A DNA stretch of 48,142 nt from Methanobacteriota archaeon (GTDB taxonomy: Archaea > Thermoplasmatota > Thermoplasmata > Methanomassiliicoccales > UBA472). Both the position numbers and the translations under genes were made by a program. Below the pieces are notes generated by a model, which was given only the letters and a program-made list of their open reading frames with translations, had not been told where the DNA came from and searched no databases. This document shows positions 2,758 to 39,002 of the stretch, one piece after another. Each line of letters starts with the position of its first letter. Position 1 is the stretch's first letter. Location: NCBI GenBank assembly GCA_029560215.1, contig JAKPZB010000078.1, positions 1-48,142 of the forward strand. The letters run 5' to 3'.

Positions 2758-3981
2758 TCACCCCAGCAGGCCGGAGGCCAGCAGCGCCGCTCCTACCGCC
2801 CCGATGTACTGCGAGTCCCTGGGGACGATGGGACGCTGGCCCAGGGTGTGCTCCATGGCCGTGACCATGCCGGATATCAGCGAGGTGCCGCCGACCTGGA
2901 TGATCGGGCGGCGCACCTCAATCTCCTGCAGCTGCTGCTCGTATATCTGCTCGGCCACGCTGTGGCAGGCCGCGGAGGCCACGTCCGCCAGGGTGTTCCC
3001 GGCGGCCAGCGACGTGACCAGGTCCTGTATTCCGAACACGGAGCAGTAGGAGTTCATCTTGACCTTGCCGTGGTCGCCCTGGTCCGCCAGAGCGCCCAGT
3101 TCCGTGATCTCCACCTTCAGGCGTTTGGCGGTCATCTCCAGGAAACGCCCGGAGGCGCCGGCGCAGATGCCGCCCATGGTGAAGTTGTCCGGGATGCCGT
3201 CCCGGACGGTGATGGCCTTGTTGTCCATCCCCCCGATGTCGATGATGGTGGCCTCCCCCTTCTGCTTGCCGGCCAGCCACACCGCTCCCTTGGAGTTGAC
3301 GGTGAGCTCCTCCTGCACCAGCTTGGCATTGAACTTCTTTCCTAGCGTGTACCGTCCGTAGCCGGTGGTTCCGATCCCCTCCAGCTGCTCATACTTCACA
3401 CCGGCCTCGGCCAGGGCGTTGGTGAGGGCGGTCTCCGCGGAAGAGTAGACGTCGCCAGTAGGCAGCCAGTACTTGCCGATGATGACGTTGTCGCGCATGA
3501 TCACCGCCTTGGTGGTGGAAGATCCTGAGTCCAGTCCGGCGGTGAGGCCGACCTGCCTCTCCCTGGCCAGAAGCTCCTTCCTCTCCACGATGGTCACCAG
3601 CGCTTCCATCCTTGTGAGAAGCTGGGCGGCCTTGGTCCGCTCCGTGAACGAGTAGGTGACCACCGGCAGCCTCACGTGCTCCTGCACGAACTTCCTGAGC
3701 TCCGTTCGGACGAGAGCTCCCTCGGCGCAGCGGAAGCAGGTGGCGATGAATATGGCGTCCGCGTCATAGTTCTTGTTGGCCAGCTCGATGGCCCGGGCGA
3801 TCATCAGCTTCAGCTGGGGGCTGTTGGGGTTGAACCCGAACTCCTCGACCGCCTTGTCGATCTTCTGCATGTCCACGTCCGGGTAGACCATCTTGGCCCC
3901 CACGGTCTCCGCGGCGCGCTCGATCTCCGCCTGTACGCCGCTGTACTCCGTCCCGCAGGAAAGTTGGGCGATCTTGATCAT
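2758..3981 (-). CDS. mmp15: Methanogenesis marker protein 15 (BadF/BcrA/HgdC-type ASKHA ATPase)
   Basis: 407 aa. ASKHA phosphate-1 motif [14 protein letters not shown] and a second DIGGMDNK motif. ATGA overlap with mmp5. Confidence 0.85.
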
Positions 3982-4412
3982 TTCAGACCCTCCAGGAACT
4001 CCTTCACCCTGACCACCATGTCCTTGGCCTCATCCTCGTTGGAGGGGTAGTCCAAAGATAGTATCGGCACCTTGCGCTTGCGGACCAGGAGCTTGGCCAG
4101 TTCGTTGGTCCGTTGGCATCCCACGCACCCGAAGCTGTAAGGGGCGTCCTCCATGAATATGGCCGCTTCCGCCTGGTCGATGAGGGGGCCGTAGATGGCC
4201 AATCTCCCGCGTATTCCGGAAGGGATCTCTATCCCGGCGTACTTCAACCCTAGCTTGACATCATCCACCGTCACGTTCAGAGGCGGCGCCTCGATCTCGT
4301 TCGACGTGACGCGGTCGCGGAGGGCCTTCATCAGGCTGAGCGGTTCGTGGCCGAACCTCTCGACCAGATCGAATAGGATCAGGCTGTTCGGCGGCATTAT
4401 GAATATCTTCAT
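3978..4412 (-). CDS. mmp5: Methanogenesis marker protein 5
   Basis: 144 aa, translationally coupled (ATGA) to both mmp6 and mmp15. Size and position match the marker cluster. Confidence 0.7.
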
Positions 4413-4834
4413 GGGGACACCTCGTCGATGAGCTTCTTAAGGTCGTTGACCGGGATCTTCTGGCGTTTCTTTGGCGCGGGGGGCTTCTCGCCCTTCTCCA
4501 CGCAGATCAGGCCCTGTTCCACCAGGCACAGGTCCTTCCATTCCTTCTCCAGTTGGGCGAACCCGGGCCGGGAGCCGTGATGGGCCCGGCAGCGGCGGAG
4601 ATCGCCCATGGGGAAGGCGCGGATCTTGGAAAAGATGCGGTTGGGGTCCATCTTGCGAACCTCGTCCAGGGTGCGCTTCACCGCGTCCCTGGGGCCCTGC
4701 AGCACCACGCCGTAGCAGGTCTCCTTCACCGTGACCTCGTTGCCCAGGTTGTGCACGAAGCGGGCGATGCGGTCCGGAGTGAGGTCGGAAGTGGGGGCGA
4801 TGAATATCAGCCTGGTCTCTATGTTGCTGTCCAT
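4409..4834 (-). CDS. mmp6: Methanogenesis marker protein 6
   Basis: 141 aa, immediately after mmp3 (1-nt gap), ATGA-coupled to mmp5. Confidence 0.7.
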   Translation of the reverse strand: MDSNIETRLIFIAPTSDLTPDRIARFVHNLGNEVTVKETCYGVVLQGPRDAVKRTLDEVRKMDPNRIFSKIRAFPMGDLRRCRAHHGSRPGFAQLEKEWKDLCLVEQGLICVEKGEKPPAPKKRQKIPVNDLKKLIDEVSP

Positions 4835-4835
4835 C

Positions 4836-6482
4836 TCAATCCTCCTTGGGCTTGGACCTTTTGGCCGGGGCCTTCTTGGCAGCGGTCGTCTTCGGCTTCT
4901 TTGGCGCTTCGGCGCCCTCCTTTGGCTTCCCAGCCTTCTTTGCCTTCTTGACCGCGGATTCCTCGGGAGTGGCGCGGCGGATGTAGATGATGTCCTCCTC
5001 GGATATCCCGGACATCATGGCGTCCAGGTCTCCGACGAAACGCCCGAGCAGGTTGGTGCCCGGGATCTCCTCGCCGGTGGGACCGAACTCCTCGCTCTCC
5101 TCCAGGCGTATTCCCATGAGACCGCGCTGCGGTCGGGACATGTTGGTTATCGCCACGTCGCCGCGGACCGAGCGACCTTCGAACGTCCTCTCCGGATAAA
5201 GGTCGGCGGCCAGCTTGGGATTCCCTTCGAAAGTTATCATGGGCATCCCCTCGAAGGTGAAGTGCACCTTCATGGTGCCCACCGGCTTGTGGTCCAAGCC
5301 GGTGACCTTGCGGAAGTAGCGCACCGTCCACGGCGAGGCCTCGGGGTCCATGGTGAGCGGGTACACCTTCTCCCTGGGAACGCCCATGGTCTCGATCTCC
5401 CTCTCCTTGGAGGCGTGGATGGTCATCTCCGGCTCCTGCTCGACGATCACCGCCTCGTCGGAGGTGTCGCCGGTGCGCTTCTGGACCTTGCCAATGGATT
5501 CCAGGAACCTCTGCGCCTCGGCCTGGGTCTTGCCGATGGTCATTATCCTTACGGGGTCCGGCTGAACCAGCACCCTCCCCTTGAGCGGGACCAGATGCAC
5601 CAGGTTGTGGCCGTTGGTGACCTTCCCCACGGTGTTGTGGGAACGGTTCAGCTGGCGGACCTGGTTGTAGAAGTATATCTTCCCGGCCTGGTAGCCCTCG
5701 TGCCTTACGGTCACCGTATCCGGGTGGCGCACCTCGCTGTATTCCTGGCCCAGGGAGGTGTCCATGTTGGCCTCGCTGGCCGAGTAGCTGAAACCCTTCT
5801 CGTCTATCGGCAGGCTGCCCTCGCCGGTGACCACCAGGAAGTGCTCGCAGCAGAGCGGCGAACGCTCGTCCAGCTTCACCCCCACGAAGGTCTCTATGAG
5901 CATGCCGTCCTCCACCGGCACGTTGAGGTCGGTTACCGGGAAGGCGTCCTGGGAGGTCATGCGCAGCACCACCGGCTCGATGTGCTCGATGACATCCCCC
6001 TCGTCGAGAAGGTCCAGGATGTGCCTTCCCCTGGTGACCCGGCCGAACACGGCGTCCTGAAGGCCGAGGTCGTCGCTCATGTCCACCCGGGCGATCATGA
6101 AGTAGGTGGTGTTCACGTCGTAACCGCCCAAGGCGAAGAAGCAATCGTAGCGCTTGTAAGTGGAAGTCCCGCGGGACTTCTCCAGCTGCGTCGGGAAGGA
6201 ACCGAAAGCATGCAGGCGGCTGGTCTGCCAACGCAGATTCCTTCCGACCACGTCGTGATACAGGCGTTTCCAGGCCTCGGCGAAGACGCTCCCGTTCAGT
6301 TCGATGATGAAGCAGCCACGGGGAGTTTTCACCATGTATTCGTTGGTCAGCTTGCGCTGGGCGTCCAGAGGTCGGATCAGGGCCACCGAGCTGCCTGGAA
6401 CATAGGGCTCTCCAACGATGGCCTGGGCCACCGTCGCCCCGTCGGGCAGTACCTTCTCCTTGCCGTTCACGATAGCTCTCAT
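4836..6482 (-). CDS. mmp3: Methanogenesis marker protein 3, with an extra Lys/Ala/Pro-rich C-terminal tail
   Basis: About 548 aa from Met11 of ORF 4836..6512 (MRAIVNGKEKVLPDG..., preceded by GAGGGGG). Length and N-terminus are typical of Mmp3 (UPF0288). First gene of the marker operon. Confidence 0.8.
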   Translation of the reverse strand: MRAIVNGKEKVLPDGATVAQAIVGEPYVPGSSVALIRPLDAQRKLTNEYMVKTPRGCFIIELNGSVFAEAWKRLYHDVVGRNLRWQTSRLHAFGSFPTQLEKSRGTSTYKRYDCFFALGGYDVNTTYFMIARVDMSDDLGLQDAVFGRVTRGRHILDLLDEGDVIEHIEPVVLRMTSQDAFPVTDLNVPVEDGMLIETFVGVKLDERSPLCCEHFLVVTGEGSLPIDEKGFSYSASEANMDTSLGQEYSEVRHPDTVTVRHEGYQAGKIYFYNQVRQLNRSHNTVGKVTNGHNLVHLVPLKGRVLVQPDPVRIMTIGKTQAEAQRFLESIGKVQKRTGDTSDEAVIVEQEPEMTIHASKEREIETMGVPREKVYPLTMDPEASPWTVRYFRKVTGLDHKPVGTMKVHFTFEGMPMITFEGNPKLAADLYPERTFEGRSVRGDVAITNMSRPQRGLMGIRLEESEEFGPTGEEIPGTNLLGRFVGDLDAMMSGISEEDIIYIRRATPEESAVKKAKKAGKPKEGAEAPKKPKTTAAKKAPAKRSKPKED

Positions 6483-6598
6483 CTTGTCCCCCTCATGGAT
6501 GCAGTGCGGCAATTATAAGGTTATTCCCGAGCCGTTCAATCTGGCTATGGCTTTCGACTACCCTTGGCCAAGCACCTCTTCCTTGGGCCGCAGGGGAT

Positions 6599-7201
6599 GT
6601 GCAAGTTATGAATAACCGCAAGTCGCTGAACCGTGGTATGGAAAGGAACGCCGTCCGCGGAGCGGTGCGCGAGAGGATACTGGAATTGAAGGGCATCGAG
6701 GTCCTGGAGTACCTTGACCAGGACTTCCGCCAGGAGATCGAGCGGAGGGAGCGCGAAGCGGAGGGGAACGGCGCGGTGGGCGGACTGATGGCCTTCGTGA
6801 ACTCCGGGGTATGGGACGTGCTAACCCGGCAGGAGGTCTTCGTCATCGTGGCCCAGCCCCAGATGGAGATCCTCCATCCCCAGGAGCACCTGGTGCACAT
6901 CGTGGACCAGCGGGGGCAGGTCATCGGCGAATATCTGCCGGAAGGAAAACGGGACGACGTGGAACTGAGGGAGAACGCCTACCTGCTGAGCGAGGACTTC
7001 GTCCTCTACGGCGATGTGGACATAGTCGGAGAGCCGTACTTCCTGATCCCGCCCATGACCTTTCCCCCCTTGGAGGGAATGTCCGGCATCAAGAGATTGG
7101 TCAGCGCCAGCATCTCCACGGCCTCCGACGACTACATCCGCGGCCGGTTGGGTTACGGGGACACCAAATGCTGGACCCATCTGGTCGGTTACGACCTCTA
7201 A
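6599..7201 (+). CDS. Protein I cannot place in a family; paralog of 13182..13724
   Basis: The C-terminal half aligns by eye with the other copy: VIGEYLPEG...EDFVLY...[19 protein letters not shown]...LVSAS...THLVGYDL versus VIGTEILPGE...DDFVVF...KEFFLMPPVSFPELEQVPG...IVSCS...SILVGFDLS. GTG start at 6599, or ATG at 6608/6638. Confidence 0.6.
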
Positions 7202-7803
7202 GGCATGGTCCGCTTGACCTTGGCCACTATCTCGTCCAGCTTGGTCTGGCTGACCGTGGTGCCGCGCACCACGCCGGTGACGATCTCCATGATGGTGCCT
7301 TTGGTGCCGATGTCCTCGTCCTTGGGCATGACCAAACGGGTCTTGCAGCCGATGCGGGCGAAGTCCTCGAAGTCCACCGGGGCCTGGCAGCAGATGACCG
7401 CCGGCAGGTCCACGTTCCTGAGGATCAACCTGGCCTTGTAGATGATGTGGTTGCGGACGTTTCCCAGGTGTATGAGAGCGACCTTGAACTGCTGGATGCG
7501 GGCAACCTCTATGGGCTCCAGTCCGAAAAGGGAGCTGGTGGAGACGTCCACCGCGTCGGAGGGCACGCCGGAACCGGCGGTGATGACGATGACCGAGGTG
7601 TCGATGCCCTCCTCCCTCAGACCGTAGGTGATCTCGCAGACCGGCTTGGTGATGTGGCGTTTCCCGGGACCCATGGCCACGGCCACCACGTCGCGCCCGC
7701 TGTCGGAGATGGTGGCCCTCTGGGCCAGGCTTCCGCCCACGCCCATCCCCCGGGCCTCTCGGCATTCCACGAAACGGGTCTTGCGGCCGATGGAGTCCTT
7801 CAA
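7198..7803 (-). CDS. mcrC: Methyl-coenzyme M reductase operon protein C
   Basis: 201 aa. [25 protein letters not shown] and [24 protein letters not shown] are characteristic of McrC. TTG start 2 nt after the atwA stop. Confidence 0.9.
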
Positions 7804-7805
7804 GG

Positions 7806-9428
7806 TCAGACCTCGCAGACGTCGGACTCGTCGCCTTCCAGGTCATCCTGGGTCATGCCCTTCAGGACCTCCTGGGGGGTTCCCAGCGCCACCATCTTGC
7901 CGCTCTTCATGAGCGCCACCCGGTCGCAGCAGGCCATTATGAAATCCATGTCATGACTGACGATGAGGAAGGTCTCGTTGAGCTCCTTGCGAGCGTGCAG
8001 TACTGACTTCGCCACGGCCTGACGGGTGATGGGGTCCATGGTGCCGGTCGGTTCGTCGAGAACCACGAAGCGCGGCTCGATGATCATGGTCCTGGCCAAC
8101 ACTATGCGTTGCTTCTCGCCCACGCTCAAGGCGTCCGGGTAGGCGTAGAGGATGCGCTCCACCTCCTTGGCGGTGAAGCCGACCCCGCGCATGACCTGGA
8201 TGGCCTTCATCTTGGCCAGTTCCTGCGGGAGCTTCATCCCCAGGCATACGGTCAGGTTCTGAAGGACGGTGTTGAACGGATAGAGCGCGTTCTCCTGGTG
8301 CATGATACCGATGTACTGGGTGGCGCGGCCTCTGCCCTCCTCTCCCAGATCGGACATGTTCACCCAGTCGTCGCCGATGCGGACAAGAACATCGCCATGT
8401 GTGGCCGGGGTGATGCCGGATATCATCCGGGATAGCGTGGTCTTGCCCGCCCCGCTCAGCCCGATCAGCCCGAATATCTCTTTTTCGTTGACATCGAAGG
8501 TGACGTCGTCCACCGCCTTCACCACGCCGCGGACGATGGAATAGAAGTATTTCTTGGCGCCTTCCACGCGGATGACCGGCTGTCCGACCTGGACGTCCAT
8601 GTCCTTGTCCCTGACGAAAGTGACGTTGAAGGCCTTGGTGACCTCGTGGGGGGCGCCCTCGGCCTTGATCATCCCGTCCTCCAACCAGATGGCCCTCTGG
8701 GAAAGAAGCTCGATGGCCTTGGGCCAGTGGGAGGTGACCACCATGGCCATGCCCGTGTCATTGACCGCTTTGATGAGCGCCTTGTGAACGGTATCCGCGG
8801 TCTCCGGGTCCAGGGTCCCGGTCGGTTCGTCGGCCAGGAACAGCAACGGCTCGCGGGCCAGCTGCCTGGCCAGCACGGTCCTCTGCTTCTCCCCTCCGGA
8901 GAGGTCGCGAGCGATGTGCATGGTGCGGTAGGTCATGTTGACCATCTCCAGCAACTTGATGGCCCGCTCCACCTTCTTCTCGTCGGAATTCTCCCTCATG
9001 GACTCGAAGACGTTCTCGATGACGCTGAGATCGCCGTACAGCGCGAAGGTCCTCTGGAGCATGATGGCTATGCGCCCGCGCATGGCCATCCTAAGGGGGT
9101 TCCGTTCATCCAGGGCCCAGAAGTCGATCTCCACGGTCTTGGTGCCCTTCCCGCACTGCGAGCACTTGGCCCCGGGCGACGGCATGTCTATCCAGCCGCA
9201 GGATTCGCAATGATTTACCCGATAGATGATGCGCCCGGAGTCGGGTTTGTACTCCTTGTTGCCGCGCATGGCATTGATGAGGACGGACTTGCCGCTCCCG
9301 CTCCTGCCGATGAGCCCGAGAACCTCGCCGGTGCGGACGGTGGTGCTGATGTCCTTGAGCACCTGGTGACCATTGAAGCTCTTGGATACCTTGTCCAATA
9401 TGACGAGAACCTCTGAACCCTCGGGCAT
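7806..9428 (-). CDS. atwA: MCR system component A2 (double ABC ATPase)
   Basis: Two ABC cassettes (Walker A GRSGSGKS and GLSGAGKT; signatures LSGGEKQ and LSVGEKQ) and a CxxC...CxxC insert (CESCGW...CSQCG). About 540 aa, adjacent to mcrC. ATG at 9428 preferred over TTG at 9440. Confidence 0.9.
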
Positions 9429-9516
9429 CCTGTTTGCCAACGATTATGGCAGATATAATACTTACCCTGTTTAGAATGCCTGGCTTTAACAATTGGATGG
9501 TGTAAGATATTTATGG

Positions 9517-9533
9517 ATGGATTATATATCCAT
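9517..9533. promoter_or_regulatory. Palindromic operator candidate ATGGAT-TATAT-ATCCAT in the atwA / wHTH-gene divergent intergenic region
   Basis: Sequence ATGGATGGATTATATATCCATCC at 9513-9535. The same 6-N5-6 palindrome is present at 18414-18434 and 39705-39752. Confidence 0.6.
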
Positions 9534-9539
9534 CCCACA

Positions 9540-10502
9540 ATGCCAATGTCCTTCAATTCCTACTTTGCCGGGGGCCCCACGCCAAAGTTCAACGCCTATC
9601 ACATTTGGAAGGCGCATCAGGTGGTGGCCAAGGAAGGCCCCATCGGCCGGAAGGCCTTGGCCGACCTTCTGCAGATCGGTGAAGGCAGCACCCGGACCAT
9701 CCTAGACAAGATGATGCGGGAGGGCTCCATAGAGAGCTCGCGCCTTGGCATAACCATAACCGAGCGCGGCAAGAGGAAGCTGGACAACTCCGGCGTTGAG
9801 GTCAGGCAGATCGACCTGTCCGATCTTACGCTGGGAAAGTACAACTGCGCCGTGCTCATCAAGGGCGCGGCGGAACGGGTGAACCTGGGCTGCGAGCAGC
9901 GGGACGAGGCGGTGCGGGCGGGAGCGATCGGGGCGACCACCCTGGTGGTCCACAATTCTCGGATCGTGTTCCCGGGGGACGAGGAGTTCCCGGACCAATC
10001 GCTGGTGGCCCCTTTGAGGAACTATTTCCGCATGGACGACGGCGACGTGATCATCATCGGCTCCGCCTTCAGCTATGAAGCGGCGGAGAAGGGCGCGGTG
10101 ACCGCCGCCCTTTCGCTCGGGAACCTTTCCCGCCGATGCTGGAACGAGGGCACGAACATCTTGAGCCAGGATACCGAGGCGGACGATCTCCGGTGCCTGG
10201 CCCTGGCCATTCACGAGCTTCTCGGCCGCCTACCGGTCACCATGCGCTCCAAGAACCACCCGGGCGTCCGATGCGAGGATGGCGAGGTCATCGACATTCA
10301 TTTCACCGGGCCCATGTTGGAGGAGTCCATGAAGAAGGGCATGGTCATACGCCGGACATCCACCAGCGGTCCGTACCGCGGATTGCCCATCATCGCCGTC
10401 CCCATCATGCGCAAGAAGGAGGCCATAGCCTCCATCGCCACCATGGACCTGGGGAAGGCCACGCCGTCGGAGCTGCTGAGCCGGTTGGCCGAGCGGTCCT
10501 AG
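9540..10502 (+). CDS. Winged-helix (wHTH) protein with a large C-terminal domain of unknown function; putative transcription regulator
   Basis: N-terminal GPIGRKALADLLQIGEGSTRTILDKMMREG looks like a wHTH recognition unit. My tentative recollection is DUF4443-type N-terminal and DUF2111-type C-terminal regions (unverified). Start moved to ATG 9540 because ATG 9513 lies inside the palindrome. Confidence 0.55.
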   Translation: MPMSFNSYFAGGPTPKFNAYHIWKAHQVVAKEGPIGRKALADLLQIGEGSTRTILDKMMREGSIESSRLGITITERGKRKLDNSGVEVRQIDLSDLTLGKYNCAVLIKGAAERVNLGCEQRDEAVRAGAIGATTLVVHNSRIVFPGDEEFPDQSLVAPLRNYFRMDDGDVIIIGSAFSYEAAEKGAVTAALSLGNLSRRCWNEGTNILSQDTEADDLRCLALAIHELLGRLPVTMRSKNHPGVRCEDGEVIDIHFTGPMLEESMKKGMVIRRTSTSGPYRGLPIIAVPIMRKKEAIASIATMDLGKATPSELLSRLAERS

Positions 10503-12331
10503 AAGTAGTACCAGATGCTGCGGTACCGCTCCGGGTCCTCGCCCCTCTCGGCCAGGGCGGCCAGGAAGTCCGCGATGGGAACGTCGCGGTGCACGTAGGT
10601 GGGGGCCACGGCGATGTTCTTCTCCCAGGGATGAAACTCATAGACCCTTTCGCCCCGGGGGGTCAGTGATATCAGGTCGTGATGCTGCCAGGCGCGCAAG
10701 TGGTTCTTTCCCAGGGCGGGAATGTTGAAGACCGGTTCGTCGGTCCGGCTGAGCCCGGGAAGCAGCCTGGCCTCTTCCTTCCGTTCCTGCAGCAGCCGGG
10801 CGATGGGCACCCGGTACTCGGCCGTCTCCTCCTTACCCTTGGCGTTGAAGGTGTAGTATGGGTCGATCCCGATCTCCTTCAGCGTCGAGCGCAGCGCCAC
10901 CGTCTCGAAGCGCCGGCAGTTCTCCATGGTGAAGACCTGCTGGTTGTACACGGATATGCCCAGTCGGCGCAGGTCGCGGACCGCGGCGGCCGCTTCCGGG
11001 GTGATCTCGTAAGGATGTTCGAAATGGGTGACCAGGGCCAATTCTCGCTTCGGGGGGTCCTGTACCTCCGCCAACCCCTCCAGGAAGCCGTGGTCGATCC
11101 TCATCGGCAGCACCGCCGGCACCCTGGTCCCCAGCCGCAGCCGTTTGATATGGGGAATGGCCGCCAGCCTTTTGAGGAGGCGACGTAACTGAGTGTTCGC
11201 CAGCATGGCGGGGTCCCCTCCGGTGATGAGCACCTCGCTGACCGCCGGATGCTCCTCGAACCACCGCAGCGCCGCCTCGATCTTCTCGGGAGGGGCCATG
11301 GCGTCCTCGGACAGGACGCCTTCGATCTCCCAGTTCCTCTGGCAGTAAACGCAGATCTGGGCGCAGGTGTTGTAAGGTTTGAATATGGCTATCATGGGAT
11401 AGCGCCTGGTAACCAGGTCCACTGGCGAGGTCTGGCCTTCCATCATGAAGTCCAGGCTGGCCGAGGGGTCCGACCTGGACCTGAGGACCGCTCGCACATA
11501 GCTCAGCGGGGGAATGACCTGGGCGCGCACGGCGTGGTCCCATTTCCGCGAGGGCTCCCGGTCCATGAGCGAGAGGTAGTACGGGGTGATGCCGAAGGGG
11601 ATGCGGTTCTCGGAACAGAGGGTTATCGCCTGGCGCTCCTTGTCGGTGAGCTCGATCAGGTCGCCGATCACGTCCGGGGTCAGCATGACATTCCTCATCT
11701 GCCACACATAATCGTTCCAGTCGTCCATGTCGGCGCCCAGGTATTCCGTTATCCGGTTGCGGTTCTCGCGCCGCCTTTGGATCGCCCAAGGTTCCAGTCC
11801 GCTGGGATACCTGACCGTCCATTCGGCCACCGCCCCCGCCATTCCGTCCAGGTAATCCGAGCGCACGCGTCCCCCTTCCTGACCGCCGAGCGCGGTGAAG
11901 TCCGGAGCCTCCTGAAGCTCCAGCACCGGTTCTCCGGTGGTGCCCCTCATGATGTGGATGATGTCCTGTACGAAGGCTTGGCTCGCGCCCTCAAGGGAAC
12001 CCTGGGAGATGTCGAATAGAACCTGGAGAACGGATTCGCCGCTCACTCTCTCGTTTCGGGGAGACAGGAAGTTGCGCATCACCCGGATGCAATGCAGGGA
12101 GTTGGACCGTTCCAGGGCGTGGATGCGGCAATCCCTGGAATGCAACGCGGATTCCCTTTCCCTTAGCAGATCGAACACCGCGGCACGGGCAGACCTTAGG
12201 TCCTCGGCGGGACCCAGCGCGTCATGCAGCTGGGGATCGGTCGCCCATAACACGGTCTGTCCGATATCCTTGTTCTCGCTCCCGCCCTCGGCGGAAGCTT
12301 TCGCTGGGGTTCTCGTGTTGCGCATGACCAT
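10499..12331 (-). CDS. KamA-family (lysine 2,3-aminomutase-like) radical SAM protein with an N-terminal extension of about 200 aa
   Basis: CAQICVYCQRNW (CX3CX2C), flanking ITGGDP and the PYYTFNAKGKEE region typical of KamA-like enzymes. 610 aa versus the roughly 400-450 aa I recall for the family. Confidence 0.7.
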   Translation of the reverse strand: MVMRNTRTPAKASAEGGSENKDIGQTVLWATDPQLHDALGPAEDLRSARAAVFDLLRERESALHSRDCRIHALERSNSLHCIRVMRNFLSPRNERVSGESVLQVLFDISQGSLEGASQAFVQDIIHIMRGTTGEPVLELQEAPDFTALGGQEGGRVRSDYLDGMAGAVAEWTVRYPSGLEPWAIQRRRENRNRITEYLGADMDDWNDYVWQMRNVMLTPDVIGDLIELTDKERQAITLCSENRIPFGITPYYLSLMDREPSRKWDHAVRAQVIPPLSYVRAVLRSRSDPSASLDFMMEGQTSPVDLVTRRYPMIAIFKPYNTCAQICVYCQRNWEIEGVLSEDAMAPPEKIEAALRWFEEHPAVSEVLITGGDPAMLANTQLRRLLKRLAAIPHIKRLRLGTRVPAVLPMRIDHGFLEGLAEVQDPPKRELALVTHFEHPYEITPEAAAAVRDLRRLGISVYNQQVFTMENCRRFETVALRSTLKEIGIDPYYTFNAKGKEETAEYRVPIARLLQERKEEARLLPGLSRTDEPVFNIPALGKNHLRAWQHHDLISLTPRGERVYEFHPWEKNIAVAPTYVHRDVPIADFLAALAERGEDPERYRSIWYYF

Positions 12332-12448: not shown

Positions 12449-12808
12449 ATGCCGATGCGGGGGGGAATGCCCGAAGAAACGGAACTCCCGCTCCAGGCCA
12501 CGGTCAAGGTCGACCCTGGCGTCTGCCGGCTTCACAGCACCATCCAGGCCCGCACCGACGGGATGCTGGTGGAGTTCGAGGTCCTGCACAGCGACTGCCC
12601 GCAGGTGAGCGACCTTAAGAAGGTCCTGAAGCGGGTGGAGATCTGGGACGTCATGAAGATGCCTTACTCCGAGAACGCCGTCTATCAGATGTGCGGAGAG
12701 GTGCTCAGGCACTCCTCCTGCCCGGTGCCCATGGCCATGATCAAATGCGCCGAGGCCGCGGCGGAACTGGCGCTCAAGAGGACGGTGACCGTGGAGTTCG
12801 TTCCCTGA
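12449..12808 (+). CDS. Small Cys-containing protein, function unknown
   Basis: 119-aa ORF with ordinary coding composition. Cys residues at CRLH, SDCP, QMCG, SSCP and IKCAE. Convergent with, and abutting, the AhpD-like gene. Confidence 0.4.
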   Translation: MPMRGGMPEETELPLQATVKVDPGVCRLHSTIQARTDGMLVEFEVLHSDCPQVSDLKKVLKRVEIWDVMKMPYSENAVYQMCGEVLRHSSCPVPMAMIKCAEAAAELALKRTVTVEFVP

Positions 12809-13102
12809 TCATTCAGACAGCAGCTTGTCGATGGAGGGCATGCCGACCGCCGCGCTCGGTCCGGCCAGGTACATGGCCACGAACAGGGATTCCCGGATCT
12901 CGTCCTTGGTCGCCCCGGCCTCCATGGCCTTCTTGGCGTGCAACTTGAAGCATTCGTCGCATTTGAGCACGGCGGTGACGGCGATCGCGATGAGCTCCTT
13001 CTCCTTGAAGCTCAGCTTGTTGTCCTTGAAGACCTCGTTCTTGAAGCGATACATGGCGCGAATGACTTCGGGCTGCTGCTCGGCCATCTGTTCCAGGCTC
13101 AT
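12809..13102 (-). CDS. Carboxymuconolactone decarboxylase / AhpD-like family protein
   Basis: 97 aa. KEKELIAIAVTAVLKCDECFKLHAKKAMEAGATKDEI contains the CxxC and helix pattern of the CMD/AhpD family. Confidence 0.7.
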   Translation of the reverse strand: MSLEQMAEQQPEVIRAMYRFKNEVFKDNKLSFKEKELIAIAVTAVLKCDECFKLHAKKAMEAGATKDEIRESLFVAMYLAGPSAAVGMPSIDKLLSE

Positions 13103-13181: not shown

Positions 13182-13724
13182 GTGCAACCAGAGGAGAGAG
13201 CGGTCGAGATCATCAAAGGCATGACCGGCACCCGGCTGGCCTTCCTGCTCAGCCCGGAGGTCATCGCGGCTGTCCAGAGGATCGAGGACAGCATCAAGTC
13301 CCAGATAGGCCTGGACGTGGTGAACGAGGGGGTCAACCAGTGCCTCCGCAGGCAGCATGTCATCTGCGTGATCAAGGACACCCGATTCCGCCCTCCGCCC
13401 GAACCGACCGTCCTCATGATGGGCGACACGGACCTGGTCATCGGGACCGAGATCCTTCCCGGAGAGCATTCCCGATACAAGGAGATGGACAACATCTGCT
13501 GGCTGGGCGACGACTTCGTGGTCTTCACGGACAAGGTGCCCAAGTCCAAGGAGTTCTTCCTGATGCCCCCGGTATCGTTCCCGGAGCTGGAACAGGTCCC
13601 CGGAGCCACGAACATAGTGTCCTGCAGCCCTTCCCCGCTGGGGGACATGATCATCAAGAACTACTACGAGCTTGAGGACAACCCGAAGCTGGCCAGCATA
13701 TTGGTCGGCTTCGACCTGTCCTGA
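13182..13724 (+). CDS. Protein I cannot place in a family; paralog of 6599..7201
   Basis: See 6599..7201 for the alignment. Convergent with the end of the mcr operon. GTG start at 13182 or ATG at 13221. Confidence 0.6.
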   Translation: MQPEERAVEIIKGMTGTRLAFLLSPEVIAAVQRIEDSIKSQIGLDVVNEGVNQCLRRQHVICVIKDTRFRPPPEPTVLMMGDTDLVIGTEILPGEHSRYKEMDNICWLGDDFVVFTDKVPKSKEFFLMPPVSFPELEQVPGATNIVSCSPSPLGDMIIKNYYELEDNPKLASILVGFDLS

Positions 13725-14097: not shown

Positions 14098-15762
14098 TTA
14101 CTTGGCGGGGATGATGGCGGTCCTCTCACCCATGGGCACGAACTCCCTGAGGCAGCCGCGACCGAACTCCTTGGTAATGTTCGCGAAGTCGAACGGGAGG
14201 TTCTTGTCGGCGAATGCGATCTTGATCAGGGGGCTGCACACGTAGGCGTCTCCGCGAGCCGCGTGGGGAGCCATGGCGATACCGGCGTATCCGCTCAGGT
14301 GACCCACGTTCATGGCGTAGTTCGGGAAGTTCGGACCGCGCAGCTCGTGCGGCAGACCCTCGTCGCTCCGGTAGGAGAACGAGTTGGACGCACCGCACAT
14401 GTCCTGCAGGTCGTATCCGTAGAACCCGAGCCTTCCGAGCCTCTCACGGTGCTGGTACATGGATAGGTACCAGGCATTGACACCCGCGTTGGCGTTACCA
14501 GTGGCCATGGCCACACCGATGCCGGTGGCGGCCGCAGCGACGGTCGCCCTCTGGGACCCACCGAAGTGGGCTTCCATGGCGGCCGGGTAGCGCTCGTACA
14601 TCTCCAGGGCGTAGGAGTTGATCTCGGACCCGAGCTTCTCGATCAGCTCAGTGGAGGGCTTGCTCTTGCAGAACCCGCCGTACTTGTCCTTGATGTGGTC
14701 CACGGCCCAGTAGGTGTAGTCCTCCAGGATGTCGTCGGTGTAGGCGGCGGTGGCGTACTGAGTGAACCCGACACCTCCGGACATGTAGGATCCGAGGTAT
14801 ATCTGGTCGAACACCACTGCACCCAAAGCGACAGTTTCCAGGGAGGCCCTGGCGGGGTCGTCCGGCTTGGTCCTGGTGCTCTGGACCATATCGGCCAGCA
14901 CACCGAACGGAATTCCACCGGGCTCGTTGGGGCCCCTGGCCCTCCTGGCGGGCATCATGGTACCCATCTCCACCACTGCGGCGTGCTTGGCGGCGAAGGC
15001 GAAGTCGGCGATCGCGGCTTCACCGGCGGCCAGCCGGTACGCGGTGATGAAGGCCATGGAGATCTGCATCGCAGAGTGCCTGGAGATCGTACCACCGTCG
15101 CACACGCGTCCGACGATGGACGGAACACGGACGACCTGCCACAGCTTCTTGCCGACAGCGGCCTTCAGCTGCTTGGCCTGGTCCGCGGGGAACTCCTTGT
15201 TGATGTCAATGACGAAGCACTTGTCGATCTCGTCGATCAGCTCGTCGTCGCCAGAGAACACCTTGACGTAGGAGTCCTTCACGATCTCAGGGCAAAGCTC
15301 GGCCATGTGCTCCTGAACCACTGCGCCGCCTGGCATGGTGTGGTTGACAGCTTCCAGGTAGCGGTTGATGGTCTCGGGGGTGACCTCCTTCGACAGCCTC
15401 TTCTCGATAACGTTGTGCGCGACATCCAGACCGACGATGACGGTCCTGCGGATATCATCCCAGGCCTGCTGCATCGCAGCGTTGTTGACCCAGTGCAGGT
15501 CATCGGCCTCGCCATAGATGTCCGTGTGGGACAGCTGGTAGGGCATCAAGACACGCTGGCCGAGAGCCACACCAATATCCTGGTTCATCATGGGGATCCC
15601 ACGGGCCTTGGCAATCTTGTTGGACTGCTCAACCCACTCCCGCTTCCTCTTCGACTGTCTCCAGCCTCCGTAGGAATAGTGCTTGGAGCGGACCTCCGTG
15701 GGGTCCTCCTTGAACTTCTTCTTCATGGCGGCGATGAACATCTTGTCCTTTTCCTTCGCCAT
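14098..15762 (-). CDS. mcrA: Methyl-coenzyme M reductase alpha subunit
   Basis: 554 aa with hallmark segments [32 protein letters not shown] and [17 protein letters not shown]. The sites corresponding to the modified His, Arg, Gln, Gly, Asp and Cys are all present. Confidence 0.98.
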
Positions 15763-15764
15763 AT

Positions 15765-16547
15765 TTAGTCCTCCTTAACATCGAAGGGCTTGAAGCCGCA
15801 CTTGGTCCTCAAGGTGTGGATCCTGAGGTTCTGCCTCATGACCTCCTCGTCCTCCCTCATGTCCACGCCGTCGGCGCGGAACATGGTGGTGTGCTCCTTC
15901 AACCACTTCTCGGGCATCGGCTTTCCGACCGCGACCGGCTTGTCCAGCGGGACACCGACCTGGTCCTTCACGTACTCGACCTCGCCCTTCTTCGCGTTCC
16001 ACCGGAACCTCTGCCAGGCGTCGAACATCATTCCGTTCTCGTCCAGCCTGACGGCGTGTCCGTGCACGGTCGCGCCTCTGATACCGGTTCTGGCGGTATC
16101 GAAGGTCTCGCCATCGATGAGTTCCTTGGCCACCTTTTCGACGTCCCTCTCCCTCATCTCGATGATCTGCCTTCCGGACAGGGTACCAGTGTCAATTCCC
16201 CGGTATCTGCACATGTACATCTGCGCCCTCACATACGGGACGATGGGGGCCCAGTACACGGAGTCAGTGAACTGAACGTACCTGATCCTGTCTCCCTTCT
16301 TCGCACCCTCCATGGGCTCGACCAAGGCCCGGATCGGGCAGTCGGGCTCGTTACCCTCGGCCAGCGGCGCGTGGATGGTGGCGTAGTCGGAACCGGGGAC
16401 ACGGTGTCCCAGGATCTTGACCACATCGTCCATCGGAATGTCGCGCAGCTTCTCCAGCTTGACGCTGGAGTCCATGAAGCGTCTGCGGTTCTTGGCGGGC
16501 AGGGTGTTGCCAGGATAGAGTTGTGCCTTGTACTTTGTCTTAGCCAT
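15765..16547 (-). CDS. mcrG: Methyl-coenzyme M reductase gamma subunit
   Basis: 260 aa. [21 protein letters not shown]...[19 protein letters not shown] is typical of McrG. Confidence 0.95.
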
Positions 16548-16548
16548 G

Positions 16549-16971
16549 TTATTTCACCAATCCTTTATTGTAGTCTGTAGTAGTTGGCTTGAACTTGTTG
16601 TAGCGACCTACCTCCAGAGTGAAACTGAAGGGTAGCACTTCCTTGCATACCTCCTCGATGTCCTTGAGAGCCTGGGGCACAAAGTCGATGTCGGCGATCT
16701 CGACGAAAACCCGACCGACCTGTATCTTAAGCTCTATGTCCTCCCCTCTGACCTTGATCTTCCTTCGTTCCGGATGGTTTACCGGACCGCCAGTGCCCGG
16801 ACCGGCCTTGATGACTGCGGGCAGGCCCTCGCCCTGGATGTTGATCTGCCTGACGTTCTTCACGGCGTACAGCTTGTTCAGCAGCACCTCCGTGGTGGAA
16901 GCCATCAGCAACCTCTCGGGGAATATCTGGATCTCGGGTAGGGGGACTCCCTCGAAGGCAGGCGTACTCAT
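16549..16971 (-). CDS. mcrD: MCR operon protein D
   Basis: 140 aa between mcrB and mcrG. IFPERLL...LLNKL...GEGLP...[18 protein letters not shown]...[14 protein letters not shown] matches McrD. Confidence 0.9.
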
Positions 16972-16973
16972 GT

Positions 16974-18302
16974 TCAGACCAGCTCCTTCAGTTTCTTGGC
17001 CTCCTTGCCTACCATCTTCATCGGGCTCTTGAACTCCGGGATCTCGCCGAAGATCTCCTTGAACACCAGGGAGGTGTTCTCAGCGCTGAAGTACTGGGTA
17101 CCAGCATCCAGAGCGCATCCGGCGGCGATGACGGGGATTACAGTGCCCTTCGCATGCCTAGTAACCACGTGGTTCCCGTGGAACAGTCCCGGACCGCCAC
17201 CACCATAGATGGAGTGGCTGAAGAAGGACATACCGACGGAAGTACCCATGGCCCTGCCGTAGTCTACACCGGGCAGGCTGGTCTCGTGCTCGATCAGGTC
17301 GTTGTAGTACAGAATGGTGGACGGAACACCCTGAGCGGCCCTTGCGGCGCCGATGTTCACGCAGATCGCGGCCAGCATACCAGCGGACACGTACGCGTTC
17401 CACAGCGGGAAGTCGTTGGTGGTGTACTCAACGAATCCGGAGGGGAACTTCTTTCCCTTCTTGATGACCTTGTCCTCTAAGGCCCTGCCGACAACGGAGG
17501 CAACGACGTCACCGACGGTGCCGGTCTTGCCGTTCTCCTTGACCCAGCTGTAGACCATGTTGTTGGCGTTCAGGCCCTGATAGGCCAGGGACAACAGGTG
17601 CTGCCTCTCGAAGTTGCCGATCGCGTCGCCCATCTCGTAGGCGGCGGCGGTCTCGTAGATAGAGGAGAGAGCGGCGGCGTTCATGGCGTTCCTGCCAGTC
17701 AGCATGACTAGGTGGTTGGCCATGATGTTCCTGAGGGCGTATCCAGTACCCTCGTTCAACTGCGGTACATCGAGAATGGTCTTAAGGTTGGACCCTTGCA
17801 TGTTGATGGTCTGCGGGTATCTGCCCCAGACGGCGGCCTTGACCATGGAAGCTTCGAACATGTTCACGTTGAACTGGTCGATGATTGCCTCGGTCACGGC
17901 GGCGGCAACGGTGGTGAACCCAGTGGTGTACTCGGCACCGGCGTCCATCCTGACGGACGGAACGGTGACGATCATCCTCTTGCCGTCAGCCATCGTCTCG
18001 ATCTTGGAGTCGTCGTCCTTGGCGGCCTTGACGATGTCAGCGATCCTCTTCTTCAACTTATCAGCGTTCGCCACGATAGCGAGGTCCAGGCTCCTGCCGG
18101 GAACATTCAATCCGCCAACCGCTCCGGTCTTGAGACCCTTCTCAATACCTTCGAGGTTGACAGCGATCGTTCTCTTCGTCAGAGAGATGGTTCGCTTAAT
18201 GGCGGCGTTGTTTAACGGACTCAATGCGTCGAGAGGCACGTCCTTTTCAATCAATTTGCCTCTGTCGTCATACAAGTCCACCTTGTCCTTGTATTTTGCC
18301 AT
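16974..18302 (-). CDS. mcrB: Methyl-coenzyme M reductase beta subunit
   Basis: 442 aa. N-terminus [30 protein letters not shown]. Strong Shine-Dalgarno element (GGAGGT) upstream. First gene of mcrBDGA. Confidence 0.95.
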
Positions 18303-18576
18303 TTTTTACCTCCTTTCAATAGCTCGGTCCCCTCAAGCAGACTTACATCAATCCTGAGAAAACCGGTACCCCTTGCGAACTCGACAATGTATAGTTAGAA
18401 TATAAGCTTGATGATGGATGGATAATCCATCCATATTAAACAATAGCTTAATTTTTGTCGCATCCCAGACAAAAATCGTTAAGTTTTAACGTCCTAAAAT
18501 TTTTTAATATTTTTATATTATAATATAATAGCCGCTTCGATTTTTAATTTATTTTCAACGAATGTTATAATAATAT
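18303..18576 (-). promoter_or_regulatory. mcr operon promoter and leader region
   Basis: A 274-bp very AT-rich spacer between tfuA and mcrB with several TATA-like boxes (for example TTATATT at about 18398-18404 on the minus strand, and TATAATATAATA at about 18510-18530) and the palindrome at 18414-18434. Confidence 0.6.
18414..18434. promoter_or_regulatory. Perfect 21-bp palindrome ATGGATGGAT-A-ATCCATCCAT (two overlapping ATGGAT-N5-ATCCAT units)
   Basis: Read directly from the sequence. Lies 112-132 nt upstream of the mcrB ATG. Confidence 0.65.
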
Positions 18577-19218
18577 TTATCGTTGTTCGCAAACGCCCTT
18601 AATGAATTTGAGGACGGTTATCGCGTCCTCCTTTTTAATATCTCGGTAATTCTCCGCAAAAAATCGGTCGAATGACTCGGCATTTTTATCGCCTACGATC
18701 CGTCGGGCCACCTCGCGGAACGCGGTCACCGTCCGGCGGGGATAGTAGATCGCGCGCATCTCGTTCATTATCCCGGCCCTCTGCTCGGCGTCGATGACGT
18801 CGGCCATCCACGCCTGGTCCAAAAGGATCCGCAGGTTCACCAGCGGTTCGGACAGCGGCTCCATGGTCTCCGGGTCGAACACCAACGCTACCTCGTCATC
18901 CCCCTGGACCTCGCCGTTGGCGTACATCCTGAAGATGTGTCCCACTCCGGTCATACCATAATGTCCCATCTCGGCCGCGCGCAGCGCGCCCATGCTCCCC
19001 CCGCCGATGACCTTCACCTTGCGGTTCAGGAGCGAAAGGATCTCCCGGTGCCCGACCGAGCAGCTCTGCAGGAAAACGCCGTCGATGATGCCGACCACCT
19101 CCACGCCTTCCAGATGCAGCAGGTCCCCCCTCTTCACCGGAGGACGGAAATCCGCGTCGAGCACTTCCCTGGCCTCGGACAGGGGAAGGCTCGGACCAAG
19201 GAACACCACCGGCCTCAT
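18577..19218 (-). CDS. tfuA: TfuA-like protein (partner of YcaO for McrA thioglycine formation)
   Basis: 213 aa. VFLGPSL...PPVKRGDL...VGIIDGVF...SVGHREIL...VIGGGSMGALRAAE is typical of TfuA. 4-nt overlap with ycaO. Confidence 0.9.
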   Translation of the reverse strand: MRPVVFLGPSLPLSEAREVLDADFRPPVKRGDLLHLEGVEVVGIIDGVFLQSCSVGHREILSLLNRKVKVIGGGSMGALRAAEMGHYGMTGVGHIFRMYANGEVQGDDEVALVFDPETMEPLSEPLVNLRILLDQAWMADVIDAEQRAGIMNEMRAIYYPRRTVTAFREVARRIVGDKNAESFDRFFAENYRDIKKEDAITVLKFIKGVCEQR

Positions 19219-20408: not shown

Positions 20409-20450
20409 GGGTGGGGAGAACCTCGGAGGAGTCAAAAAACTTTTGCGTGA

Positions 20451-20933
20451 TCAATCCCGGTGCCCCTCGCTCTCCGCCAACGGCACGGCGAGATCGAACA
20501 CGGCGTCCTCGTTGATCGGAATCCGCTCGATCAGGATGTCCACCTCCACCCGTTGCACATTGGGTATGTTGACGATCTTGTCCTGGATGAGATCGTAGAG
20601 ATTGTCCACGCTGCTGGAGTAGACCTCGCAGATCAGGGAATGGTCCCCGAACACCTTGTGCGCGTACTGGATGCCCGGGAACTTTTTCAGTTCGTCGATC
20701 ACCGCGCTCAGCGGCGAACCGACCACCTGCAGCCCGATAAGGGCGCGCATGAGGCCCAGCTTCCCGGTGTTCACCTGCATGGTGTAGGCGTTGACGTAAC
20801 CTTCCTCCTCCAGACGGGAGATTCGTCTGCTTACCGTGGCCTTGGACACCCCGAGCTTATCCCCGATGGTCCCCAGGTTCTCCCGGGCGTTCTTCCTCAG
20901 CATCCTGAGTATCTCTAGGTCGATGAGGTCCAT
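20451..20933 (-). CDS. Lrp/AsnC-family transcriptional regulator
   Basis: DLIDLEILRMLRKNARENLGTIGDKLGVSKATVSRRISRLEEEGYV (HTH) followed by a C-terminal RAM-like domain. ATG at 20933 preferred over TTG at 20948. Confidence 0.85.
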   Translation of the reverse strand: MDLIDLEILRMLRKNARENLGTIGDKLGVSKATVSRRISRLEEEGYVNAYTMQVNTGKLGLMRALIGLQVVGSPLSAVIDELKKFPGIQYAHKVFGDHSLICEVYSSSVDNLYDLIQDKIVNIPNVQRVEVDILIERIPINEDAVFDLAVPLAESEGHRD

Positions 20934-20943
20934 GGTTAAACCC

Positions 20944-20958
20944 TGCAATTTTATTGCA
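20944..20958. promoter_or_regulatory. Inverted repeat TGCAAT-TTT-ATTGCA just upstream of the Lrp-family gene
   Basis: Perfect 6-3-6 palindrome 11-25 nt upstream of the ATG. Possible autoregulatory site. Confidence 0.35.
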
Positions 20959-21071
20959 AAACGACCATTGACAAGGCCATTATATTGACCTTTGTTTCAA
21001 AAATGAATGATATTTAAAATTTTTTTGTAAGAAATCGCCTTCATCCCTGCCGCGCGATACGGTTCGGGAGA

Positions 21072-34478: not shown

Positions 34479-34638
34479 AATGTCTTCCGTCGGACCACCT
34501 TCAATTTCAAATTATTTTGTAATGGCATTCGATAGATAATAAATATTATTTAAAATATTCTAGAAACAGTTTGCCTCATATACAGTATCCAGTGCGCGTC
34601 GCTCCGTTGGAAAGGCGGCGAGGTGACGGTAATCTTCG

Positions 34639-36606: not shown

Positions 36607-36656
36607 GTATATCCCTGGGGGATGCACGAGACCGGGATTTAAGAATTCTCTTACTC

Positions 36657-38021: not shown

Positions 38022-38075
38022 TCACTCCCCCGATTTCTGAAGATACCTCTCTCTTCGATTATACAAGTTACGCAG

Positions 38076-38912: not shown

Positions 38913-39002
38913 ACGGTATAAGATTATGCACCGATATTTTTATTGATTAAATATTATTTTTATAAAAGGTCATAAAAAAAAGGAATTGGGGGCAGTGCCC
39001 CT

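Follow-up and report, generated by a model that had tools for sequence, protein, structure and literature searches.

Methyl-coenzyme M reductase (MCR) makes nearly all biological methane, and how methanogens set its level is poorly understood. To our knowledge, no dedicated mcr regulator is known in Methanomassiliicoccales, an order of methylotrophic methanogens that depend on H2 and live in guts, rumen and wetlands. Here we analyzed a gene for a putative transcription regulator in a 48,142-nucleotide (nt) stretch of DNA from an archaeon of this order (contig JAKPZB010000078.1 of assembly GCA_029560215.1, positions 1 to 48,142 of the forward strand; hereafter the window). The gene (9540-10502, + strand) encodes a protein of 320 amino acids (aa), called the regulator below, and the window holds a complete MCR marker neighborhood around it. 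The window has a G+C content of 60%, and its closest relatives all belong to Methanomassiliicoccales. Comparison of this locus with its relatives suggests that the regulator probably binds the palindrome 5′-TGGAT-N5-ATCCA and controls both its own gene and mcr.

Dedicated local regulators are familiar from other methylotrophic methanogens. MsrA-G of Methanosarcina, which consist of an ArsR-type helix-turn-helix (HTH) and DUF1724, were reportedly described by Bose and Metcalf in 2008/2009 as local regulators of methanol and methylsulfide methyltransferase operons; we know of no report that they control mcr. Like the regulator, Msr proteins are encoded beside methylotrophic methanogenesis genes, but neither of their domains was found in the regulator with Pfam. 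In the IclR family, as in the regulator, a winged helix-turn-helix (wHTH) is followed by alpha/beta effector domains, and IclR genes are typically divergent from the target operon and autoregulated. Foldseek gave IclR proteins a full-length probability of 0.9-0.98, but their superpositions on the regulator were poor (root-mean-square deviation, rmsd, ~19 Å; TM-scores 0.16-0.25), so that the architecture alone is comparable.

Two other systems resemble the regulator in structure. CggR/SorC repressors (Bacillus subtilis CggR; 7oyk, 8r3g) have a closely similar wHTH (0.9 Å at 25% identity), and CggR is further comparable as a metabolite-controlled protein of a central energy pathway with its gene beside the target operon. 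However, the SorC sugar-phosphate effector domain is missing from the regulator, in which the C-terminal 240 aa are taken up by DUF4443 and DUF2111, and CggR binds direct repeats whereas the candidate site of the regulator is an inverted repeat. PH0730 of Pyrococcus horikoshii (2P8T) is a structural-genomics protein of unknown function with the Pfam families PH0730-like_N and DUF4443. It is homologous to the N-terminal two thirds of the regulator (phmmer, E = 1.5e-13, residues 31-191), with which it has in common the GEGSxRT recognition helix and the RDEAxxxGAxGATT motif, but it lacks DUF2111, and no operator, regulon or ligand has been assigned to it. In the literature searched, PH0730 is mentioned solely as a wHTH or DNA-binding protein by prediction (PMC6316755, PMC2475642).

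An earlier note on this DNA had pointed to a wHTH-like segment at the N-terminus of the regulator (residues 33-62) and had tentatively named DUF4443- and DUF2111-like regions. The hidden Markov model search bore out all three domains. The segment lies inside a PH0730-like_N match (Pfam PF22167; residues 33-78, 9636-9773; E = 2.8e-10, 40.6 bits against a cut-off of 30.2), a wHTH that is also CggR-like: CggR_N matched just below its Pfam cut-off of 30 (29.3 bits, E = 6.9e-7). DUF4443 (PF14544; residues 98-193, 9831-10118) scored 98.3 bits against a cut-off of 27 (E = 2.7e-28) and carries the motif EQRDEAxRAGAxGATT, of which RDEAxxxGAxGATT is invariant in the orthologue alignment. DUF2111 (PF09884; residues 224-304, 10209-10451), a putative sensor or partner-binding domain, scored 93 bits against a cut-off of 27 (E = 1.2e-26). 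By Pfam thresholds, then, the regulator belongs to both the PH0730-like/DUF4443 family and DUF2111. Pfam gave no HTH_IclR, IclR_C, SorC effector domain, HTH_5 or DUF1724 match in it. With NCBIfam, neither a family nor a match to the methan_mark_N models (Mmp1-17) was obtained for the regulator, its DUF2111 domain or the free-standing DUF2111 proteins. We do not place the regulator in the SorC/CggR, IclR, Lrp/AsnC or Mmp families, or, by the definition given above, among the Msr proteins.

The open reading frame (ORF) extends from 9513 to 10502, but we took ATG 9540 as the true start, because homologues share the N-terminus MxLxFxSY and lengths of 319-321 aa. The upstream ATG at 9513 sits in the palindrome (ATGGATGG...) and accounts for database proteins (P0003, P0006) that are over-extended to 329 aa. 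Their N-terminus, MDGLYIHP, is a translated operator.

The AlphaFold model of the regulator, built with 84 sequences, had a mean predicted local distance difference test score (pLDDT) of 87, and above 85 in the wHTH region; a first model, from a shallower alignment, had been poor in the DUF2111 region. The model consists of a winged helix, an alpha/beta DUF4443, a disordered linker (197-204) and a DUF2111 of the order alpha-3beta-alpha-3beta-alpha. Its best structural match in the PDB was PH0730 (2P8T; Foldseek E 1e-10, 1.4e-10 and 3e-10; rmsd 2.7-2.8 Å; target-normalised TM-score 0.77-0.78). The wHTH superposed on the operator-bound DNA-binding domain of CggR (7oyk) with an rmsd of 0.9 Å over ~64 residues, so the predicted structure does contain a DNA-binding fold.

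The exact palindrome ATGGAT-N5-ATCCAT occurs at five sites in the window (9517, 18414, 18418, 39705 and 39736, the second and third overlapping), against 0.01 expected. The first, candidate operator 1, reads GGATGGAT-TATAT-ATCCATCC (9515-9535) and lies between a TATA-like box and the regulator ATG. Its core, ATGGAT-TATAT-ATCCAT (9517-9533), is separated by six bases from ATG 9540, so that the gene starts 7 nt after the site, as the earlier note had it. The TATA-like box, ATATTTAT (9507-9514, +), abuts the operator, and TTTAWAT is kept here in orthologues. A lone half-site, TTGGATGG (9493-9500), stands ~30 nt from the centre of operator 1; it is conserved as ATTGGAT in the closest relatives (L001-L010) and is possibly an auxiliary site.

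The two overlapping sites form a candidate mcr operator, ATGGATGGAT-A-ATCCATCCAT (18414-18434), 112 nt upstream of the mcrB ATG of the mcrB-mcrD-mcrG-mcrA operon (14098-18302, -), which is a putative target identified from its ORFs, NCBIfam and synteny. A CTTATAT box on the mcrB strand (18400-18406, -), also found in the profile of 27 promoters described below, lies 7 nt 3′ of this 21-nt operator, or 9-10 nt from its 17-nt GGATGGAT-N-ATCCATCC core, and is likely the mcrB TATA box. The last two sites, candidate operators 3a (ATGGAT-GAGAC-ATCCAT, 39705-39721) and 3b (ATGGAT-TATTC-ATCCAT, 39736-39752), are upstream of a corrinoid-protein gene (39003-39638, -; Pfam B12-binding and B12-binding_2), a putative regulon member. 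Their centres are 31 bp apart, about three helical turns. A TATA-like sequence on the gene strand, TTTATTAG (39686-39693, -), lies 5 nt 3′ of the extended operator 3a, whose last arm base is 39699, and is likely the promoter of the corrinoid gene. Two further matches, with two mismatches each, at 27720 and 36772, were inside ORFs and were treated as chance occurrences.

For comparison across the order we used 80 species-level Methanomassiliicoccales loci from GTDB genomes (1.21 Mb). In the window, the regulator gene is separated by 111 nt from atwA-mcrC on the minus strand, and this divergent arrangement, to which the earlier note had drawn attention, recurs widely: in ~65 of the 80 loci the regulator gene is divergent from atwA-mcrC(-orf200)-mmp3 upstream and is followed downstream by DUF6951, CMD, orf180, mcrAGDB and tfuA-ycaO. 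The synteny spans protein identities from 95% to 41% and covers both Methanomassiliicoccaceae and Methanomethylophilaceae.

The palindrome is confined to two promoters in these loci. All 81 perfect copies of TGGAT-N5-ATCCA lay either 3-10 nt before the regulator ATG or 108-171 nt before mcrB. When up to one mismatch and any spacing from 0 to 12 were allowed, the scan gave 85 matches, 48 of them at the regulator start and 37 upstream of mcrB, at the same distances, and no palindrome was found outside these two promoters in the 1.21 Mb. The form GGATGGAT-N5-ATCCATCC precedes the regulator ATG in nearly all Methanomassiliicoccaceae, and is the extended form of the repeat in this clade. The 46 distinct own promoters could be written as A.AA..TTTAWAT-GGATGGAT-N5-ATCCATCC-(3-6 nt)-ATG, with invariant arms and a variable spacer; the 27 mcrB promoters gave the profile ATyGTTTAnnaT-GGATGGA-N3-TCCATCC-AtcAtCAagCTTATAT. 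The recognition helix GEGSTRTILDKM is almost invariant across Methanomassiliicoccales, and its form GEGS[TVI]RT is conserved both order-wide and in two-domain relatives, which fits a common half-site.

Further conserved elements surround these palindromes. A CTGG(C) box recurs ~35-50 nt upstream of both the mcrB and the regulator palindrome. Downstream of CTTATAT, the mcrB leader contains a conserved GCAAGGGG and a GGAGG ribosome-binding site; GCAAGGGG(A) lies in the presumed 5′ leader at ~18330-18345 in the window and at the equivalent places in L001-L080.

The three-domain protein (wHTH, DUF4443 and DUF2111) is restricted to Methanomassiliicoccales, but its modules are not. When 1.84 billion representative proteins were searched with a profile, 1148 relatives were obtained, of which 745, each representing one 50%-identity cluster, had E <= 1e-10. 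Among the matches listed, most are PH0730-like proteins of ~200 aa with wHTH and DUF4443, a small number consist of DUF2111 alone (114-127 aa), and a singleton, P0136, has the reverse order DUF2111-wHTH-DUF4443. One protein of 241 aa (P0137) has two tandem DUF2111 domains. That DUF2111 is fused in both orders suggests that it works jointly with the DNA-binding module. The earlier note had described the family as apparently restricted to methanogens or archaea. The wHTH-DUF4443 module is not methanogen-specific, and a link to methanogenesis genes was seen for the DUF2111-containing proteins alone.

The palindrome accompanies the two-domain relatives. From 80 metagenomic loci obtained with a 10-sequence profile we excluded five of Methanomassiliicoccales type (36-99% identity to the first sequence of the profile). 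In the remaining 75 loci (344 kb), perfect TGGAT-N5-ATCCA was present in 40, with 46 sites against 0.285 expected and a maximum of two in 200 shuffles. The spacing N5 stood out (46 sites), followed by N1 (14) and N9 (7), with 0-1 for the others; the N1 and N9 counts are by-products of GGATGGAT-type arms. The consensus in these loci was gtTGGAT-N5-ATCCAac. Among 34 non-redundant loci with an intergenic upstream region, six had a perfect TGGAT-Nx-ATCCA within 150 nt of the regulator start (0.056 expected; maximum two in 2000 shuffles).

In the two-domain loci the sites are intergenic, abut TATA-like boxes and precede neighboring genes, namely those for a 218-aa ORF of unknown function, ECF-transporter S components, Peripla_BP_2, a radical-SAM protein and a beta-propeller/PKD protein. 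A layout of TATA box, palindrome and leaderless start is frequent in these loci (L084-L163). The regulator genes themselves are often the last of an operon, after genes resembling those for S-adenosylmethionine (SAM) synthetase, ornithine carbamoyltransferase (argF) or carbamate kinase (arcC), a resemblance judged by eye from C-terminal signatures. These neighbors hint that DUF4443 may sense a small metabolite, and the loci as a whole point to what would be a widespread, unstudied type of archaeal regulon.

The gene for the reverse fusion P0136 (locus L164) is divergent from an operon with MtaA-like (URO-D) and corrinoid genes, and the shared control region contains GGTTGGAT-GTATT-ATCCATCC. 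The wHTH-DUF4443 module is the sole feature common to all contexts of the palindrome. As the motif is present with both the two-domain relatives and the reverse fusion, it is linked to this module rather than to some other DNA-binding factor. The earlier note's proposal of the regulator as the prime candidate to bind the palindrome thus gains support from comparative genomics, through the footprint at the own and mcrB promoters and the motif in distant relatives.

Another factor might nevertheless bind the palindrome, with the regulator gene a mere member of its regulon. Two candidates are encoded in the window, an Lrp/AsnC protein (20451-20948, -) and an ArsR-type (HTH_5) protein (38076-38912). 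The Lrp/AsnC gene kept its place beside ycaO-tfuA-mcr in each of the 28 loci long enough to include it, which makes its product a serious alternative binder; archaeal Lrp-type proteins can, moreover, bind 13-15-bp palindromes with AT-rich centres. However, the region upstream of this gene (20949-21100 and its equivalents in L011-L079) has no TGGAT site and contains another palindrome, of the type GCAAC-N3-GTTGC (for example GGAACAATGTTGC, TGCAACGTTGTTGCA and TGCAACAAAGTTGCA), in the classic 13-15-bp Lrp format. With distinct palindromes before them, the two genes each appear to own an autoregulatory box, and we rejected Lrp/AsnC as the binder. Its box suggests that Lrp/AsnC may be a second, separate autoregulated factor in the MCR neighborhood. 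The ArsR-type protein is encoded in the corrinoid operon, but no counterpart of its gene was found in the orthologous mcr loci. The TGGAT palindrome follows the PH0730-type module into unrelated lineages and contexts. Binding by a different factor therefore seems quite improbable to us.

The palindrome might also act at the RNA level, as a hairpin in a 5′ leader, or be intrinsic to a bidirectional promoter whose TATATAT centre serves as TATA box. The centre of site 1 is indeed TTATATAT, and the region can form a hairpin of -12.9 kcal/mol, but with z = -1.94 this hairpin is unremarkable. The arms are invariant, without compensatory changes, while the spacer varies (TATAT, GATAT, GGTAT, AGACC, GCACC and others). 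At mcrB the centre of the site is a single base, with no TATA-like core, and elsewhere the same palindrome stands 5′ of TATA-like boxes, where it would not be transcribed. The hairpin was rejected on the grounds of its z value, the lack of co-variation in the arms and the sites upstream of TATA-like boxes, and neither form of this explanation seems credible.

If the regulator is the binder, as we consider likely, it would be a one-component transcription factor, most likely dimeric, whose PH0730/CggR-type winged helix recognises the 15-bp TGGAT-N5-ATCCA, and whose DUF4443 and DUF2111 domains would set the DNA-binding activity according to a signal. In archaea, the centre of the TATA box normally precedes the start site by 26-27 nt. 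The centre of the TATA-like ATATTTAT is ~30 nt before the ATG, from which we infer a leaderless regulator mRNA with the operator over the start site. Archaeal repressors that act by preventing the recruitment of polymerase usually bind in this position. Because the site lies between the TATA-like box and the adjacent leaderless start, the bound protein would be expected to block recruitment of RNA polymerase at its own promoter, resulting in negative autoregulation.

At the mcrBDGA and corrinoid promoters, the protein would act from just upstream of the likely TFB-recognition element (BRE) and TATA box. In archaea, a site directly 5′ of BRE/TATA usually serves activation, and sites directly 5′ of a TATA-like box were also seen in L164 and in many two-domain relatives. 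A site in this place could alternatively occlude the BRE. The regulator might then be a plain repressor, not a dual one, at its own, the mcr and the corrinoid promoters, blocking TFB/TBP or polymerase and being released by a ligand when substrates or cofactors of methanogenesis are available. In support of this explanation, a conserved GTTTAWY adjoins the mcrB palindrome on its 5′ side, in the position that the TATA-like box occupies at the own promoter, and the site would be repressive if GTTTAWY is the TATA box. Likewise, the corrinoid site ends 5 nt from its TATA-like box and would overlap the BRE, and several two-domain relatives have the order TATA box, palindrome and leaderless start before a target gene. 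However, CTTATAT, 9-10 nt 3′ of the mcrB palindrome, is better conserved than GTTTAWY, and the placement in L164 and many relatives is the one more often activating. Repression throughout is possible, but we would not expect it.

The earlier note had proposed a regulator of MCR synthesis and activation. The palindrome at mcrB agrees with the former, whereas control of atwA-mcrC, and with it of activation, would be plausible only with an intergenic region of 108-132 nt, as in the window.

Several observations weigh against control of mcr by the regulator as proposed here, or limit it. In genomes with ~250 nt between the two genes, there is one site, close to the regulator gene and far from atwA. 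Among Methanomethylophilaceae, the sediment clade and the host-associated members have an own site that is either degenerate or spaced by N9, as in ATGGAT-GAATCATAC-ATCCAT. Of the mcrB promoters of Methanomethylophilaceae, those in L057-L059 have an N5 site, and several have no obvious site despite the presence of the protein. Co-variation between helix and motif (N5 against N9, or degenerate sites) was uninformative, as the helix is invariant. The mcrB palindrome is flanked by GTTTAWY on its 5′ side and CTTATAT on its 3′ side, an arrangement that fits either sign of regulation. The corrinoid-gene palindromes were seen solely in the window and not in the orthologous loci. Two-domain relatives are found beside unrelated genes (SAM synthetase, argF, arcC and ECF S components), so that the module alone is not a marker of methanogenesis. 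The fold of DUF2111 gave only weak GAF/IclR-like and dCache hints in a Foldseek search with the full-length model, which was dominated by wHTH/IclR matches, and a DUF2111 profile search of PDB sequences gave only noise (actinohivin; a phosphodiesterase GAF domain at E = 0.76). The literature searched contained no data on binding, footprints, transcription starts or expression.

DUF2111 also occurs as a free protein. In all four Methanobacteriales loci (L081, L165, L166 and L167), a free DUF2111 gene lies between mmp6 (DUF2102) and mmp5 (DUF2112), in the order DUF2117-mmp2-mmp3-mmp6-DUF2111-mmp5-mmp15-mmp17, with coding sequences that overlap or abut. In another lineage it precedes frhADGB. The free proteins (114-127 aa) have no DNA-binding domain and are translationally coupled; they are homologous to the C-terminal domain of the regulator (33-44% identity), with the H, R, E, D, YTGP and VVP positions kept. 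The conserved polar positions, H225, R236, R244, E246, D252, E261, Y279 and D303 in the regulator, would be compatible with a pocket for a ligand or a surface for interactions. No gene separates mmp6 from mmp5 in the window, where the two abut (4409-4412), so that the regulator-fused copy is its one DUF2111. Gene context thus ties DUF2111 to the MCR marker-gene cluster, and the position of the free protein between mmp6 and mmp5 suggests that the signal of the regulator is probably a ligand or partner linked to Mmp proteins. Mmp3, Mmp7, Mmp17, McrC and A2 form an ATP-driven MCR activation complex, in a study that describes no roles for Mmp5, Mmp6, Mmp15 or DUF2111 (PMC12176620).

The same context could be read as a structural or chaperone role of the regulator in MCR maturation or activation, with the winged helix serving protein contacts and the palindrome unrelated. 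The translational coupling of free DUF2111 in mmp6-DUF2111-mmp5 operons and the position of the regulator gene amid the MCR marker genes would agree with such a role. However, the modelled wHTH is a close structural match to the DNA-bound CggR domain, the recognition helix is conserved family-wide, and the palindrome accompanies wHTH-DUF4443 even where DUF2111 and methanogenesis genes are absent. The activation complex, made up of McrC, Mmp7, Mmp17, Mmp3 and A2, contains no regulator-like protein (PMC12176620). We regard a mainly structural or chaperone role as very improbable.

Taken as a DNA-binding protein, the regulator would be a metabolite- or partner-controlled wHTH type with an unusual sensor domain borrowed from the mmp cluster, and would work like an autoregulated one-component regulator encoded beside its targets. 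A more speculative scheme, which we put forward tentatively, joins these observations. DUF2111 would be a module of the Mmp/MCR-activation machinery and would have been captured at least twice, in both orders, by a PH0730-type module; the fused regulator would read the ligand or partner of free DUF2111 and feed the state of the machinery back onto transcription of mcr and methyltransferase/corrinoid genes; and the whole PH0730/DUF4443 family would share TGGAT-N5-ATCCA as a widespread, unrecognised class of archaeal regulators.

A few genomes have a second, unlinked paralogue of the regulator (44-51% identity). Its neighbors, DUF1638, RACo and two MtaA-like URO-D genes in L052, and paralogues of mmp17 and mmp15 with RACo in L056, are again related to methanogenesis. 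The reverse-order fusion and these paralogues, adjoining MtaA-like, corrinoid and RACo genes, recall the placement of Msr genes.

Around the regulator gene, the minus strand of the window carries mmp7 (1264-2181), mmp17 (2181-2753), mmp15 (2758-3981), mmp5 (3978-4412), mmp6 (4409-4834) and mmp3 (4836-6512). They are followed by orf200 (6599-7201, +), a conserved ORF with no assigned role, and by mcrC (7198-7803, -) and atwA (component A2; 7806-9428, -), both identified by Pfam and NCBIfam and by the synteny in ~65 loci. Downstream of the regulator gene are a KamA-type radical-SAM gene (10499-12331, -), a DUF6951 gene (12449-12808, +), a CMD-family gene (12809-13102, -) and orf180 (13182-13724, +), a paralogue of orf200. 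Beyond mcrBDGA lie tfuA and ycaO (18577-20435, -), next to the Lrp/AsnC gene. A 16-kb marker cluster was described by Borrel et al. 2014, and the regulator gene is absent from its Table 5.

The paralogous orf200 and orf180 (32% identity, E = 2e-16) had no Pfam or NCBIfam family. Both are kept order-wide, orf200 in the opposite orientation to mcrC and mmp3, between which it lies, and orf180 near mcrA; orf180 may be the ‘conserved hypothetical protein’ (arCOG02882) in Table 5 of Borrel 2014. The KamA-family protein, encoded between the regulator and DUF6951 genes, is aminomutase-like, with 610 aa and an N-terminal extension of ~190 aa. Its gene is limited to the closest relatives (L001-L012 except L011, plus L055) and absent from the remainder of the order. 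Downstream of the corrinoid gene and on the same strand are genes for the ArsR-type HTH/DUF7347 protein (38076-38912), a protein of 454 aa for which neither a family nor a PDB relative was found (36657-38021), a hydantoinase/ASKHA-like protein of 673 aa (34639-36660) and an ArsP-type permease (33438-34478). The gene set at 33438-39638 (-) may represent an uncharacterised corrinoid-dependent methyltransferase system.

Some of the orthologous loci have peculiarities of their own. Three GTDB genome records with bacterial titles, Eggerthellaceae (L069), Acutalibacteraceae (L072) and Firmicutes CAG:194 (L078), carry a mcr/atwA/regulator locus of Methanomethylophilaceae type and are likely mis-binned archaeal contigs. 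In L007, a close relative (AnMBR.bin351, 18253-20710), the McrA downstream of orf180 is 45% and mcrG 63% identical to those of the window, while McrA in other loci is at least 70% identical; either a second, divergent MCR or a rearrangement of the locus may account for the difference.

DUF2111, DUF4443, an operator of this kind and a dedicated mcr regulator in this order were not found in the literature searched, and TGGAT-N5-ATCCA as a predicted operator of the PH0730/DUF4443 family is new as far as that literature shows. If our interpretation is correct, it would give a concrete, testable protein-operator pair for the control of the methane-enzyme genes in Methanomassiliicoccales and a first function for DUF4443 and DUF2111. 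It would also offer a clue to the role of the unnamed DUF2111 gene in the mmp operon, some of whose products were recently shown to make up the MCR activation complex, and a possible handle for reporter systems or for manipulation of methane output. For the large family of archaeal regulators to which the protein belongs, it would predict a common operator.

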